Shown here: piece after piece, positions 4,184 through 21,283 of the stretch | Layout: each line of letters starts with the position of its first letter | Numbering within the stretch: the stretch's first letter is position 1 | Assembly: GCA_964459805.1 (NCBI GenBank) | Contig: CAYWOD010000034.1 | Location: 1 to 21,283 of the forward strand | Direction of reading: 5' to 3' | DNA length: 21,283 nt | Source of the DNA: an uncultured Pirellulales bacterium | Lineage (GTDB): Bacteria; Planctomycetota; Phycisphaerae; Sedimentisphaerales; Anaerobacaceae | Made by a program: the position numbers and the translations under genes | The notes under the pieces: generated by a model | What the model saw: the letters and a program-made list of their open reading frames with translations, nothing else | What the model was told of the DNA's origin: nothing | The model's database searches: none

Positions 4184-4248
4184 GTGGGGGGGAGACCGGC
4201 TGGTATCTTGGCCTTTGGCTCATTTGAGAGAGAAAGGAGAGTAGTGCG

Positions 4249-4797
4249 ATGTTGTTAATAATTTATGCGGCGGTGTGTGTATGTTCCGGGGCCCTTCTGT
4301 TTCTGATGGCCTTTCTCGGCAGCGATTATGACACGGATGTGGATGCAGACATTGACATAGACATAGACGGTCTGGATATGGACGCGGGCGAATTCGGCGG
4401 GCCCGGCATACTGAGCATTAAGCTGATAATGTTCTTTCTGATTGGTTTTGGGCTTTGCGGTTTCATGGCTGTGCACTTCGATTGGCCAGTGTATCATGTT
4501 GTTTGGGCGCTGGCCGGCGGGTTGGTTCTCTGGTACATTGGCTATAAACTGCTCAGCTTGCTCTACAGCCAGCAGTCAAACAGCCAGATCAGGGCGCGTC
4601 AATTCGTGGGGAAAGATGGAAGAGTGACCGTTCCGATACCAAAAGGAGGGGGCACGGGCGAGATAGAGGCGACCGACAAGGACACCGGGCGAAGTGCCTA
4701 CTTTAGCGCGAGGGCAAAAGATCCGGACAAGGAATATCAGAGGGGAGAAACTGTGAAGATAAAGTCCGTTACAAGCGGAACCGCCGTAGTAGAGTGA
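4249..4797 (+). CDS. NfeD-family membrane protein (YqiJ-like; OB-fold C-terminal domain)
   Basis: 182 aa. Hydrophobic helices are present (LLIIYAAVCVCSGALLFLMAFLG, IKLIMFFLIGFGLCGFMAV, VVWALAGGLVLWYIGY). An acidic D-x repeat loop (DYDTDVDADIDIDIDGLDMD) lies between them. The C-terminal NfeD-like beta domain reads GKDGRVTVPIPKGGGTGEIEA...GETVKIKSVTSG. AAGGAG lies 9 nt upstream of the ATG. The gene sits directly upstream of a flotillin gene, which is the classic NfeD/SPFH pairing. Confidence 0.8.
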   Translation: MLLIIYAAVCVCSGALLFLMAFLGSDYDTDVDADIDIDIDGLDMDAGEFGGPGILSIKLIMFFLIGFGLCGFMAVHFDWPVYHVVWALAGGLVLWYIGYKLLSLLYSQQSNSQIRARQFVGKDGRVTVPIPKGGGTGEIEATDKDTGRSAYFSARAKDPDKEYQRGETVKIKSVTSGTAVVE

Positions 4798-4804
4798 AAA
4801 TGAG

Positions 4805-4969
4805 TTCTGCAAAATTGCAGGTTAGGCCTATATTGTTGAAGAATTGCTTTTTTATGATTTTCTTCAATAATTACCTAACCACTTATGGCACAATACATTG
4901 CTGTTAAAAAGAAAAAATCAAAAAACGATTTTTCTTTTCTAAGTAGGCCTAACCTGTAATTTTGCAGAA
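4805..4969. repeat. 165-bp AT-rich element bounded by 26-bp near-perfect inverted repeats (TTCTGCAAAATTGCAGGTTAGGCCTA ... TAGGCCTAACCTGTAATTTTGCAGAA)
   Basis: The left arm is 4805-4830 and the right arm 4944-4969. They match at 25 of 26 positions as reverse complements. The interior is ~25% GC in a ~58% GC genome. It contains nested hairpins (TTGAAGAA/TTCTTCAA and AAGAAAAAATC/GATTTTTCTT). Each arm carries a CTGCAAnnTTGCAG-type palindrome. Confidence 0.65.
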
Positions 4970-5037
4970 GCCTTAGAATAGAAAGGAATTGAGAATTCGT
5001 TAACAGGCAACTTAGAAACCATAGAAAGGGATAAATC

Positions 5038-6486
5038 ATGGAAAACTTAGGTTTGATTGTCGTAATTGCGGTGGCTTTTATTGGTGTGATTTCCGGTATT
5101 TTCATTTTCGCAGCCAACTATATAAAAGCCGAGCCGCACGAGGCCCTGGTATTTACGGGCAGAAGGCACAAAGCCACGAAAAGAGGATGGGTGGCCGTCG
5201 TCGGCGGCGCCAAGTTCAGGATTCCCGTTTTGGAGATAGTCAACAAGATCTCTCTAAAAACGATGAATCTTCCGGAGGTGCGCGTCGAGGCGGCATATTC
5301 GGCCGAAGGCGTGCCGGTAACTATCGAGGCCGTTGCCAACGTGAAGATCTCCAGCGAGCAGGAAATGCTCGGCAAGGCAGTGGAGCGATTTCTCGGGACT
5401 TCTGATCAACAAATAAAGCAGATTATCAAGGAGACCTTGGAGGGCCAGCTTCGTGATATTATTGGCGTTATGACCGTCGAGCAGCTTTATCAAGAAAGAG
5501 ATATGTTTGTCAATAAGGTGCTTCAGCAGTCGGGCGAAGAGCTGGCGAAGATTGGCGTGATTATTGACATCATCAATATCCAGGACATCCGCGATGAAAG
5601 AGGTTATCTCGAGGCCCTCGGCAGAAAAAGGACCGCTGAGGTAATAAGAGACGCTGAAATCGGCGAGGCCGAGGCAAAAAGAGATGCGATGAAGGAGTCT
5701 GAGACCGCCAGGAGGGAAGGTGAAGTCGTACGGGCCGAGCAGGAGAGACAGATTGCCGAGGCCGAGAAGGGCCGCGATGTTGCAAAGCAGCACTATGTCG
5801 GCGAGACTCTCGCTGCGACGAGAAAGGCCGAGCAGCAAGGGCCACTTTCCGAGGCAAAGGCCAAGCAGGAAGTGGTTGTTGAGCAACAGAAGGTATTAGA
5901 GGAGCAACAAAAGGCGAGAGAGAAAGTCGAGTCCGCCAGGGCCGAAGCCGAAGAACAGAAGTACCGAGCGGACCGAGTGATTCCCGCCGAGGCCGACCGG
6001 CAGGCGGTCATTCTCGAGGCAGAAGGTCAAGCCGCCGCCATTTTCAAGCGGGCCCAAGCACAGGCAAAAGCTATCCAACTCAAACTCGAAGCCGAGGCCG
6101 AAGGCCTTAGAAAGAAAGCGGAGGCCTGGAATACCTACGGAAAGGCGGCCCAGCTTAATCTGGCGCTGGAAGCGATTAAAGAGGTTGCTGGAAAGGGCGC
6201 CGAGGCCCTCGGTGCGATCAAGTTCGATAAGGTCATTGCGATTGACAGCGGCGGCGGCGACGGTGAGACCGCGGTCAACAGGATGCTGACGGCAACGCCT
6301 GCGGGGCTCGTGAAGTTCCTTGAGCAGATAAAGGCCGCCACCGGGATCGACCTGGCGGAGATTCTTAAGAATGTTAATTCTATGGAAGATGAATCTACTG
6401 ACGCATCGCAGATCACAGGCGAAAAAGAGGATGCCAAGGCTAAAGCGGATGCCGGACCCAAATCCAGGAAGGGCGAAAAGGCTTAG
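5038..6486 (+). CDS. Flotillin-like SPFH/band-7 domain protein (YqiK/FloT-like)
   Basis: 482 aa. An N-terminal TM helix (LGLIVVIAVAFIGVISGIFIFAANY) is followed by an SPFH domain. A long Ala/Glu/Lys/Gln-rich coiled coil with flotillin-type EA repeats follows (EAEAKR..., EQERQIAEAEKGR..., AEAEEQKYRADR...). AAAGGGA lies 7 nt before the ATG. Confidence 0.9.
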   Translation: MENLGLIVVIAVAFIGVISGIFIFAANYIKAEPHEALVFTGRRHKATKRGWVAVVGGAKFRIPVLEIVNKISLKTMNLPEVRVEAAYSAEGVPVTIEAVANVKISSEQEMLGKAVERFLGTSDQQIKQIIKETLEGQLRDIIGVMTVEQLYQERDMFVNKVLQQSGEELAKIGVIIDIINIQDIRDERGYLEALGRKRTAEVIRDAEIGEAEAKRDAMKESETARREGEVVRAEQERQIAEAEKGRDVAKQHYVGETLAATRKAEQQGPLSEAKAKQEVVVEQQKVLEEQQKAREKVESARAEAEEQKYRADRVIPAEADRQAVILEAEGQAAAIFKRAQAQAKAIQLKLEAEAEGLRKKAEAWNTYGKAAQLNLALEAIKEVAGKGAEALGAIKFDKVIAIDSGGGDGETAVNRMLTATPAGLVKFLEQIKAATGIDLAEILKNVNSMEDESTDASQITGEKEDAKAKADAGPKSRKGEKA

Positions 6487-6590
6487 CACATCTAACACAA
6501 TAAGCGCGAATGCGTTATAAAGGCAGAGATTGCCCCGTTCGCCTCCGGCGGACTCCTTAGAAAATACCTGGTTCTTGTAGTCTGAGGATT

Positions 6591-6626
6591 GAGATTGCCG
6601 CAGTCGCTGCGCTCTTTCGCGATGAC
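6591..6626 (-). repeat. REP-like repeat copy (GAGATTGCCGCAGTCGCTGCGCTCTTTCGCGATGAC)
   Basis: It belongs to the same family as 2810-2847 and 20922-20957. It lies downstream of the flotillin gene. Confidence 0.65.
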
Positions 6627-6655
6627 ATATTTGGGCTATTTTCTCCTACGTGCAT

Positions 6656-7202: not shown

Positions 7203-8276
7203 ATGAAACTGAAAACAGCCAAACGCTTGATAATCGCCGCCATAATCGCCGTCGTGGTGACCGCCACCATTTCCACCTGGCCGCCGCCCCCACCAGAATA
7301 CGAAATCACTGACCTGGGTTTCTGCGGCACATCAGGGCACGTCAGCGCCATAAACAACGCCGGTCAGGTCGCCGGCTGGTCCCCCTATTACTCCGGCTCT
7401 CCCGCCCGGAACATTGCCTTCGTCTGGGACGCAGTCAATAAAAGAAAGGACATCGAGACGCCCGAAGGAAAACAAAGCTTCGCCAATGACATAAATGACA
7501 AGCCCCAGGTGGCCGGTTACCTCTTAGAACCTCAGACCAAACACACCTCCGCCTTTATTTGGGACGAAGAAAACGGCATAACCGAACTCGACACTCTCGG
7601 CGGAAACTCGAGCAGCGCCACCGCCATCAACAACAAAGGCCAGCTCGTGGGCTTCGCAGAGACTTCGGAGGGTGTAAAGCATGCCTTTATCTGGGACAAG
7701 ACCCGCGGAATGCGAGACCTCGGCACCCTCGGAGGACGCTGGAGTAGGGCCAGCAACATCAATGACAAGGGGCAGGTTGTGGGCATTTCAACGCTTGCGA
7801 ACGGCGACGCTCACGGCTTTATCTGGCAGGAAGATACGGGAATCGTCGATCTGGGCACACTTGGAGGCCAAACCATTTATGCCGCGAGTATCAACAACTC
7901 GCACCAGGTGGTCGGGGCAACTTACAAGAAAGGGCGCACGCATGGTTTCATCTGGGAGACGAACAAGACTATTACAGAACTCAACTTACCCGGCCTGGGA
8001 AGCTTCCCTGTCAAGATTAACGATGCAGGCCAAATCATCGGTTACTTCCAAACGCGAAAATTTCTGTTCTTCAAAGGCCGCCAAACCTGGTTTTTGTGGC
8101 ATTCTGACCGCGGAATTATCGAACTGGATGCCATATCGAAATCGAATGGTGCCCAGTTTAAGCCAGTGGACATAAACAACAGAGGCCAGATCGTTGGAAC
8201 TCAAATCTCCAAAAGCGGTCAAAACCACATTGTCATTTTGACACCCAAACCCGAATCGAAGACGGAAGACGAGTGA
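7203..8276 (+). CDS. HAF-family extracellular repeat protein (N-terminal membrane anchor)
   Basis: 357 aa. An N-terminal TM anchor (LIIAAIIAVVVTATI) is followed by ~7 tandem ~45-aa repeats. Each repeat has INNxGQVVG ... H(A/G)FIWD ... G(M/I)xDLGTLGG. This is the signature of the 'HAF' extracellular repeat family. Confidence 0.85.
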   Translation: MKLKTAKRLIIAAIIAVVVTATISTWPPPPPEYEITDLGFCGTSGHVSAINNAGQVAGWSPYYSGSPARNIAFVWDAVNKRKDIETPEGKQSFANDINDKPQVAGYLLEPQTKHTSAFIWDEENGITELDTLGGNSSSATAINNKGQLVGFAETSEGVKHAFIWDKTRGMRDLGTLGGRWSRASNINDKGQVVGISTLANGDAHGFIWQEDTGIVDLGTLGGQTIYAASINNSHQVVGATYKKGRTHGFIWETNKTITELNLPGLGSFPVKINDAGQIIGYFQTRKFLFFKGRQTWFLWHSDRGIIELDAISKSNGAQFKPVDINNRGQIVGTQISKSGQNHIVILTPKPESKTEDE

Positions 8277-8289
8277 ATGGAGCTGTAGC

Positions 8290-9330
8290 ATGAAGCCAAG
8301 AACGACCAAGAGATTAATAGTAGCTGCGATCATCGGGGCAGTCTTGGCAGTTTTTCTGATTTTCCGTTCTGTTGCCCCGCTGGAATGTGAAGTCACCGAT
8401 CTTGGCTATATTAAAGGGTACGGATGTGCCAACGCTATAAACAATGAAGGGCATGTCGTCGGCTGGACGCAGATAGACGCTCTGGCTACGGCCTTTATTT
8501 GGAGCCCCGAGAAGGGCAGAAGGAGTATCCCGGCCCTTGAAGGAAAAGAAAGCCGGGCCTACGACATAAACGACAAAGGCCAGGTAGTAGGCTATTTCGA
8601 CGAGCTGGATAAGAAAACGCCTGACCGTGCTTTTATCTGGGACGAAGAAACAGGGCTGACCGAACTCGGGACACTCGGCCGCAGTTCACAGGCATTCGCG
8701 GTCAATAACAAAGGACAAGTCGCAGGTGCCTCAATGACTCCCGACGGTCAATGGCACCCTTTCATTTGGGACAAAACAAACGGAATGCGAGACCTTGGAA
8801 CGCTCGGCGGAAAAAGCTACGCCCAGGATATCAACGAAAAGGGACAGGTCGTAGGTATCTCGTACCTCCCAAATGGACAACAACACGCGTTCATCTGGCA
8901 GCAAGGCACCGGGATAGTCGATATCGTAACACCTGGCGGCCCGCCAAGCCGCGCCATGAGTATCAACAATGCAGGCCAAGTGGGTGGGCAAATTGCGAAA
9001 AAGGGGACCGGAAGGGGTTTCATCTGGGAATTAAATACGGGCATGACCGTCCTTGGTATAAAAGGTCAGATACACAGGGGGATGAGGATTAATGATTCAG
9101 GCCAGGCCGTTGGCTACTACTTCACTGACAAACTTCTCTTCTTCAAGGAGCGGCATTCTGTCTTCCTTTGGGATCCGGATCGGGGCGAGGTAGAGTTGAA
9201 TCTGGGGCCGGAGAATGTCAACGATATTTTAGGACTCGATATCAACAACAAAGGCCAAGTCCTCGCGACTTTTCAGGTCACCCGGCAAGAGCACCGCGTG
9301 GTAATCCTGACGCCTAAACCCAAGCAGTAG
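8290..9330 (+). CDS. HAF-family extracellular repeat protein, tandem paralog
   Basis: 346 aa. It has the same architecture and repeat signature (AFIWSPE, AFIWDEETGLTELGTLG, HPFIWDKTNGMRDLGTLGG, HAFIWQQGTGIVD, GFIWELNTGM). GGAG lies 8 nt upstream. It is 13 bp downstream of HAF1 and ends with the shared ILTPKPK tail. Confidence 0.85.
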   Translation: MKPRTTKRLIVAAIIGAVLAVFLIFRSVAPLECEVTDLGYIKGYGCANAINNEGHVVGWTQIDALATAFIWSPEKGRRSIPALEGKESRAYDINDKGQVVGYFDELDKKTPDRAFIWDEETGLTELGTLGRSSQAFAVNNKGQVAGASMTPDGQWHPFIWDKTNGMRDLGTLGGKSYAQDINEKGQVVGISYLPNGQQHAFIWQQGTGIVDIVTPGGPPSRAMSINNAGQVGGQIAKKGTGRGFIWELNTGMTVLGIKGQIHRGMRINDSGQAVGYYFTDKLLFFKERHSVFLWDPDRGEVELNLGPENVNDILGLDINNKGQVLATFQVTRQEHRVVILTPKPKQ

Positions 9331-20859: not shown

Positions 20860-21147
20860 GTCATTGCGAACACCTCACCTGATTCTCAGCAGGCATACAG
20901 AGAAGAAAGTAGCCCACGCACGTCATTGCGAAGGAGCGCAGCGACTGCGGCAATCTCAACCCTTACACTGCAAGAACCGGCTATTTTCTTAGGAGGAGCG
21001 AAGCCCGTTTTTTGTCATTGCGAGGAGCGAAGCGACGAAGCAATCTCGAAGTCTGGGATTGCTTCGCTGCGCTCGCAACAGGCTCCGCAATCTCGATTTT
21101 CGAGTGTTTGAGATTGCCACGGCCTTTGAAAAAGGCCTCGCAATGAC
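20860..21147. repeat. Cluster of at least six REP-like repeat copies in alternating orientation
   Basis: Copies: 20860-20896 (37-bp subfamily); 20922-20957 GTCATTGCGAAGGAGCGCAGCGACTGCGGCAATCTC; 21014-21047 GTCATTGCGAGGAGCGAAGCGACGAAGCAATCTC; 21056-21080 inverted partial copy; 21083-21118 GCAATCTCGA...TTGAGATTGC hairpin; 21110-21147 GAGATTGCCACGGCCTTTgaaAAAGGCCTCGCAATGAC. This last one is an inverted copy with its own GGCCTTT/AAAGGCC core hairpin. The cluster generates spurious ORFs 20926..21111(+) and 21015..21197(-). Confidence 0.75.
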
Positions 21148-21283
21148 ACAGAAACGCAATTTATACCCCCTGAACGGTTACAAACGTACTTGATCATCGA
21201 CCCACAACCATTCTCGTGGTAAAAGGCTATGCCTTAATATTAGGTACTCACTCATGATATTGGTAAGGAATAACAACAAAATT

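Follow-up and report, generated by a model that had tools for sequence, protein, structure and literature searches.

A probable MITE copy in the spacer between an NfeD-like gene and a flotillin gene belongs to a dispersed Sedimentisphaerales family that may target sites upstream of ribosome-binding sites

Several small dispersed repeats of bacteria invite comparison with the inverted repeat analyzed here. Correia elements (CREE/NEMIS) of Neisseria bear IHF sites and outward promoters, and their co-transcription yields long stem-loops with possible effects on the genes nearby (PMC2649163, PMC3184786). MITEAba12 of Acinetobacter, which is associated with ISAba12, generates 9-bp duplications that are kept in about 40–50% of its copies and has a core unrelated to any IS (PMC6382973). 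QMITE2 of Coxiella burnetii combines direct repeats of 7–9 bp, inverted repeats of 23–29 bp and a core of 113–145 bp, and its RNA is predicted to fold very stably (PMC10969869); for Nezha, a cyanobacterial MITE with the parent ISNpu3, mobility was deduced from filled versus empty orthologous sites (PMC3184786).

The repeat under study occupies positions 4800–4974 of the window, by which we mean the whole stretch of DNA that was analyzed (21,283 nt). Its left arm TTCTGCAAAATTGCAGGTTAGGCCTA (4805–4830, plus strand) and right arm TAGGCCTAACCTGTAATTTTGCAGAA (4944–4969, minus strand) are 26 nt long each, spaced by 113 nt and reverse-complementary at 25 of 26 positions, which reproduces the value given in a preliminary description of the locus. 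The single mismatch is TGTAAT for TGCAAT in the right arm, a variant that is also found at three other loci (L017, L063 and L098). With up to three mismatches allowed, the 26-mer has no further match in the 21-kb window, and it has none in 100 dinucleotide-preserving shuffles. The preliminary description had placed the limits of a 165-bp element at the arms; while the inverted repeat itself stands, the alignment of more than 40 copies shows that the element extends 5 nt further at each end, so that the unit reads ATGAG-arm…arm-GCCTT and measures 175 bp. The two tips, ATGAG (4800–4804, plus strand) and GCCTT (4970–4974, plus strand), are conserved, mutually non-complementary and flip together with the orientation of the element. 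Among the matches listed, the tip reads ATGAG at 62 of 169 ends and AAGGC, the reverse complement of GCCTT, at 67 of 169.

The interior has a GC content of 24.8%, in line with the earlier estimate of about 25%, and the whole unit one of 30.9%, whereas the surroundings, previously put at about 58%, amount to 55.2% across the window. The left arm, which is nearly invariant over 41 aligned copies, contains the palindromes CTGCAAAATTGCAG and TAGGCCTA; the palindrome CTGCAAnnTTGCAG occurs in both arms, perfect in the left and with one mismatch in the right, as had been noted in outline. The nested smaller hairpins that had been perceived between the arms are likewise present. Hairpin A (TTGAAGAA...TTCTTCAA, consensus TTGAAGAAAATC...GATTTTCTTCAA; 4832–4871, plus strand) is paired in 99% of its cells across copies, and hairpin B, composed of A and T only (AAAAAGAAAAAATC n7 GATTTTTCTTTT, consensus AAAAAGAAAAAATC n7 GATTTTTTCTTTT; 4904–4942, plus strand), is almost invariant and paired in 97%. 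Between them lies a variable centre of about 32 nt (4872–4903, plus strand), which has the lowest column conservation and sets genome-specific subfamilies apart. The unit has no evident coding capacity, with stops in all six frames and a longest ORF of 35 codons. In this architecture QMITE2 is the closest described element and nearly identical, a likeness that is drawn by description and concerns an unrelated host. An independent JGI contig contains the element in identical form. A Logan contig has its start inside the element, a break of the kind that repeats typically induce in assemblies, and for this reason too annotators should mask the element as a repeat.

The element is flanked by a gene for a 182-aa membrane protein (4249–4797, plus strand) and by a flotillin gene (5038–6486, plus strand). 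Of the names given to them before, flotillin rests on a solid Band_7 (SPFH) match, while nfeD is weakly supported: the Pfam NfeD C-terminal domain is covered in full and at the C-terminus of the 182-aa protein, with E=0.1 and 13.3 bits, below the cut-off. We hence refer to this gene as NfeD-like. For an empty-site comparison we used the loci of five flotillin orthologs that are 86–94% identical. All five share the gene order of the window, ThuA-like, an ORF of 180–187 aa and flotillin, with the NfeD-like ortholog in the same position. The spacer between the NfeD-like and flotillin genes measures 240 nt in the window versus 56 nt in five of five orthologs, none of which carries the element, and this difference corresponds to roughly 175 plus 9–10 nt. 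The ortholog empty site reads ...GTAG TAGAGTGAAA CGCAATTGAG... (preceding stretch CCGCCGTAG) with one target copy only, and the filled site of the window reads ...GTAGT AGAGTGAAA [ATGAG...GCCTT] AGAATAGAAA GGAATTGAG.... The alignment thus reveals one clean insertion in the window and the duplication of a 9-bp target that overlaps the stop codon of the upstream ORF. The left copy of this duplication, AGAGTGAAA (4791–4799), holds the TGA stop of the upstream ORF, and the right copy, AGAATAGAAA (4975–4984), has decayed by one substitution and one inserted base. It is this decay of the right-hand repeat that explains why no clear target-site duplication had been visible beforehand. A direct repeat further on, ATAGAAAGGAAT / ATAGAAAGGGAT (4978–4989 and 5021–5032), was considered as a second duplication and rejected, since in the empty-site alignment its first copy is the decayed target duplication abutting native spacer.

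Neither gene was damaged by the insertion, and the stop codon of the upstream ORF and the flotillin RBS were preserved; 45 nt of native spacer with the native RBS (5025–5031) were kept downstream of the element. The preliminary description had named the retention of the inverted repeat in orthologous spacers as a check, its loss counting against a mobile element if the repeat were unique; all five spacers are empty and the insertion is lineage-specific. The element is dispensable in these five related lineages, and the MAG of one empty locus (L107) harbors the MITE elsewhere, at L009. Mobility is deduced here in the same manner as for Nezha, which resembles the present element also in its inverted repeats, direct repeats and stable fold.

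An exact scan with 20 nt of the arm, covering one genome per species, retrieved at least 101 DNA stretches. Among the matches listed, six MAGs are represented, with 43, 22, 19, 8, 8 and 1 stretches; five of these MAGs bear the label Sedimentisphaerales and one the label Pirellulales. When the listed loci were searched again with mismatches, 157 arm hits were obtained, among them 44 copies with both arms at a distance of 159–270 nt; the arm-to-arm length has its mode at 166–167 nt, and most full copies are 176–177 bp long, with 79–97% identity to the one in the window. The window copy is 94–97% identical to copies in the MAG CSMAG_1600 and 78–83% identical to the most distant ones, and the subfamilies follow genomes, which argues for amplification within genomes. 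A direct repeat of 8–12 bp with at most one mismatch flanks 31 of 62 paired copies (15 of 9 bp and 9 of 10 bp), compared to 0.6 per 62 expected when left and right flanks are shuffled among elements. Moreover, filled and empty forms of a second locus exist: L098 and L114 carry the element there, L113 lacks it and L112 has a remnant. A recurrence of the repeat elsewhere, suggested earlier as a way to recognize a mobile element, is thus found in six MAGs and next to unrelated genes.

Taken with the empty orthologous spacers and the family-wide target-site duplications, these many copies bear out the earlier reading as a MITE-like mobile element. We consider it highly probable that 4800–4974 is a copy of a non-autonomous MITE of about 176 bp which inserted into the 56-nt spacer in this lineage, and the inverted repeat of the window would accordingly be what a transposon left behind in the spacer of an operon and not an element designed for control. 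Each end of this MITE would consist of a 5-nt tip and a 26-nt terminal inverted repeat enclosing an AT-rich, hairpin-forming and non-coding core. All testable features that define a MITE are present save an identified parent; less in keeping with this explanation are the 5-nt tips, in which the two ends show no inverted complementarity, the imperfect duplication in the window and the strong conservation of the internal hairpins. The literature searched describes no MITE in Sedimentisphaerales or other Planctomycetes, and we suggest that this family of Sedimentisphaerales (Phycisphaerae, Planctomycetota) is undescribed so far, while being an ordinary kind of element.

In its genomic behaviour the family is closest to the Correia elements, which are also non-coding MITEs (about 100–160 bp) with terminal inverted repeats, a conserved core and many copies near genes. 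Correia elements duplicate TA, and their repeat sequence is unlike the arm in the window. The Sedimentisphaerales family differs from them in its 9–10 bp duplications, shows no sequence similarity to them and resides in another phylum, and the window element lacks the IHF consensus and the σ70-like promoter; hence it is not a member of the Correia family. MITEAba12 is likewise small, AT-rich and non-coding and comes closest in duplication length. It is, however, only 113 bp long with 16-bp inverted repeats, versus 176 bp and 26+5 nt here, and it has a target that is merely AT-rich, predicted outward promoters and a known co-resident parent IS, whereas the Sedimentisphaerales MITE has a precise target, 6 nt from GGAG, and yielded no parent in the collections searched. 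Nezha differs in the same respect, as its inverted repeats are common to an identified IS. Overall, the window element belongs to none of the Correia, QMITE2 and MITEAba12 families.

The length of the duplications together with the long inverted repeats points to mobilization in trans by a DDE-type transposase, which would bind the ends of about 31 bp and cut with a stagger of 9–10 bp. An autonomous IS with matching ends or a candidate transposase was found neither in the listed loci nor in one metagenome scan, a plasmid collection and viral contigs. The metagenome scan was aimed at arms that continue into non-MITE sequence and yielded only a further MITE copy; an all-against-all BLAST of the loci showed no common IS-sized repeat, the plasmid collection and viral contigs contained no parent element, and a relaxed search with the tips alone recovered just short variants and remnants. 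Unpaired arms in the listed loci, checked for an adjoining transposase gene, proved to be mostly truncated copies, short variants and contig ends. The sole transposase adjoining an arm is an IS701-family protein of 433 aa at L003, and its element was rejected as the parent because it has its own unrelated inverted repeats (GTAAACTTTCGCACTTTT). This IS701-family insertion sequence (L003 3953–5378) lies directly against a solitary MITE arm, exactly flush with its inner side. There is a loose resemblance between the tip GGCTTCTGCAAAA and the inverted repeat GGCTTTGTTGCACAAA of the ISAba12 type, which goes along with 9-bp duplications (PMC6382973), and we mention this as a lead only.

Besides full copies, the family comprises shortened forms. 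A form of 83 bp with a truncated arm accounts for 14 paired copies and is abundant in the MAG CAYGZM01, and a form of 54 bp consists of the tips and a perfect 44-bp palindrome, as would arise by slippage between the two TAGGCCTA copies. Loci with such derivatives are L002 (5177–5259), L018, L028 and L065 of CAYGZM01, among others, and L004, L014, L047 and L076. Further decay products are copies missing one arm and scars of 20–28 nt between intact duplications. Such scars (ATGAG-TTCTGCAAAATTGCAGAA-GCCTT or shorter, 20–28 nt) also lie between duplications just upstream of the RBS of the NfeD-like gene in orthologous loci (L105/L106 ~833–860, L108 ~834–855 and L109 ~845–875), and positions 4210–4239 of the window may keep the uncertain trace of one (GGCTC ATTTGAGAG AGAAAGGAG). 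Many contigs of CAYGZM01 end 20–25 nt inside an arm, which indicates that the repeat fragments this assembly. Full copies, the 83-bp and 54-bp derivatives and the 20–28-nt scars together provide a marker of recent genome change in these uncultured lineages. The MAG CAYGZM01, which is labelled ‘uncultured Pirellulales’, has the MITE family and an ortholog of about 83% nucleotide identity in common with a Sedimentisphaerales MAG (L039 versus L083), and on these grounds its label is probably wrong.

To describe the insertion sites, flanks were read outward from every element tip among the matches listed. GGAG starts 15–20 nt outward from the tip at 54 of 171 ends, compared to about 3.5 expected from background frequency, and 27 of 62 elements have the start of a long, Shine-Dalgarno-preceded ORF 25–32 nt from a tip. 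Pre-insertion targets were rebuilt for the 31 copies with clear duplications, and 17–18 of these, by our count, conform to the pattern of 9–10 duplicated bp, 6 nt (usually nnnAAA) and GGAG. The precise insertion is exemplified by L011 2061–2237, L037 3100–3276, L089 901–1076 and L098 6207–6382, and either tip may face the gene. In the last of these, 28 nt separate the element from the ATG of a DUF6786 gene. The corresponding site in L113 (~570–600), whose ortholog is 83% identical, is element-free and reads ...GGTTCTCAAA caagta AGGAG acaaaca ATG, and from this comparison of empty and filled sites it follows that the RBS belongs to the target. In L114 (~398–572), a close relative of L113, precisely this site is occupied in the orientation seen in L098, by a member of another subfamily. 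In L112 (96% ortholog, ~480–510), all that is left between the duplications is 28 nt of the element. Such a history calls for either independent insertions at one site or precise excision. Since TTGACA-N17-TATTCT and TATAAT boxes lie upstream of the DUF6786 site, canonical insertions are located inside 5′UTRs. The window copy is non-canonical, as its duplication directly abuts GGAAT and the true flotillin RBS follows 51 nt further on. Another non-canonical site would be L111, where a MITE copy (1–185) lies, judged by eye, about 15 nt from the 3′ end of an apparent tRNA gene on the opposite strand (~195–270).

In most family members the target would thus be located 6 bp upstream of GGAG. The proposal that the MITE is site-specific, its transposase reading Shine-Dalgarno-encoding DNA (~AAAGGAG) and cutting exactly 6 bp upstream of GGAG, whichever end faces the gene, seems to us evenly poised between right and wrong. 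If it is true, the element has been built into the 5′UTRs of many genes, 25–32 nt before their start codons, which would represent a new mode of target selection for a bacterial cut-and-paste element and a natural system that plants large stem-loops beside RBSs genome-wide. The literature searched, MITE reviews included, describes no MITE or IS that targets the RBS region, and for QMITE2 no RBS-adjacent targeting is reported in the review (PMC10969869). The REP2 repeats of Neisseria and the IR repeats of Borrelia contain a promoter, an RBS and an ATG themselves and have no terminal inverted repeats, whereas the RBS next to the Sedimentisphaerales MITE is that of the target and is already present in the empty site. 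Landing next to RBSs points to an unusual sequence-directed transposase or to a widespread effect on 5′UTR structure or translation.

The 56-nt spacer suggests that the NfeD-like and flotillin genes were an operon, and the element would then be co-transcribed and add a very stable stem-loop, with a stem of 26 bp and more, to the intercistronic RNA. The long-stem RNA anticipated by the preliminary description holds as a prediction for a transcribed element: the predicted fold reaches −66.9 kcal/mol (z = −10.3) for the plus strand and −58.8 kcal/mol (z = −8.2) for the minus strand. There is no σ70-like promoter in 4600–5200 and no intrinsic terminator on the plus strand of the same interval, in which one weak minus-strand match falls into the left arm; the element contains no IHF consensus site, and Rfam gives no gathering-level match in the window, relaxed searching yielding generic long-hairpin miRNA-precursor matches that are far below threshold (28 versus 171 bits) and spurious.

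One could suppose that the MITE copy has a post-transcriptional role, here or family-wide, with the long double-stranded stem, located in the transcript of the NfeD-like and flotillin genes or in the 5′UTRs at canonical sites, acting as an RNase III processing or stability element. This reading is compatible with the MITE explanation and does not exclude it. It would fit the very stable predicted fold of both strands, the location of more than half of the copies inside 5′UTRs, 15–20 nt from the RBS, and the precedent of the Neisseria Correia elements (PMC2649163). Across copies, 96% of the helix cells are paired, and hairpin A exists in a compensated variant (L008 and L043, also L016 and L068). 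Most pairs, however, never vary, so that there is little true covariation and a covariation test says little on RNA function in these nearly invariant helices; complementarity is expected anyway of terminal inverted repeats, and the element is dispensable in five orthologs. Across six genomes the conservation of the internal hairpins equals that of the arms, which could reflect a function beyond transposition or merely recent spread. On balance, we regard such a role as unlikely, and at the flotillin locus the element is most likely a near-neutral passenger.

The asymmetric tips bear on a different idea, namely that the element is an inverton whose 26-nt inverted repeats serve as recombination sites and whose 113-bp core flips to switch expression. 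Oriented by the core, the tips read ATGAG...GCCTT in 33 of 41 copies, are swapped in 4 of 41 and are of the same type at both ends in a few (L048, L086, L083 and L031). The four copies whose core runs opposite to the tips all stem from the MAG CAYGZM01 (L074 4547–4722, L088 3203–3378, L089 901–1076 and L094 4483–4658) and would agree with flipping. Yet ordinary recombination can be expected to invert the segment between 26-nt inverted repeats now and then, and the A/A and B/B tip combinations cannot be made by inversion. The core furthermore contains no σ70-like promoter, neither the ten window ORFs that were scanned nor the genes called near the element contain a recombinase domain, and target-site duplications and empty sites show transposition. 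We thus consider an inverton very improbable; the combinations of tips and core suggest inversion between the arms together with repair or recombination at the tips of a MITE.

The preliminary description had offered a second reading, in which the repeat is a locus-specific module of two palindromic operators about 140 bp apart that bracket an AT-rich promoter and loop the DNA to control the flotillin gene. The AT-rich interior and the interrupted palindrome CTGCAAnnTTGCAG plus TAGGCCTA in each arm would suit it. It is hardly credible, however, given that the element is missing from five orthologous spacers, one of them next to a 94%-identical flotillin gene, that the same MITE unit adjoins many unrelated genes in six genomes, that no σ70-like promoter is present in 4600–5200 although TTGACA/TATAAT-type boxes occur elsewhere in these genomes, and that no transcription-factor gene adjoins. 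Equally implausible is a REP/BIME palindrome moved by a RAYT transposase or a palindromic element derived from IS200/IS605, as these classes match the dispersed, intergenic, hairpin-forming repeat with asymmetric tips but lack target-site duplications and long terminal inverted repeats, whereas half of the copies here have 9–10 bp duplications and the unit has 26-nt arms and 176 bp instead of 20–40 bp.

Apart from the MITE, the window contains a second dispersed repeat family, which is GC-rich (GTCATTGCGAGG ... GAGATTGCCGCAGTCGC ... CTCGCAATGAC). Its members at 2746–2826, 6553–6647, 20901–20995 and 21008–21153 are all intergenic, and between the two 95-nt copies there is 84% complementarity. 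In addition, two paralogous genes with DUF3466 matches stand in tandem at 7203–8276 and 8290–9330. They contain internal repeats of about 129–135 nt, seven to eight units in total, which probably encode a repeated beta-propeller-like or similar protein module.
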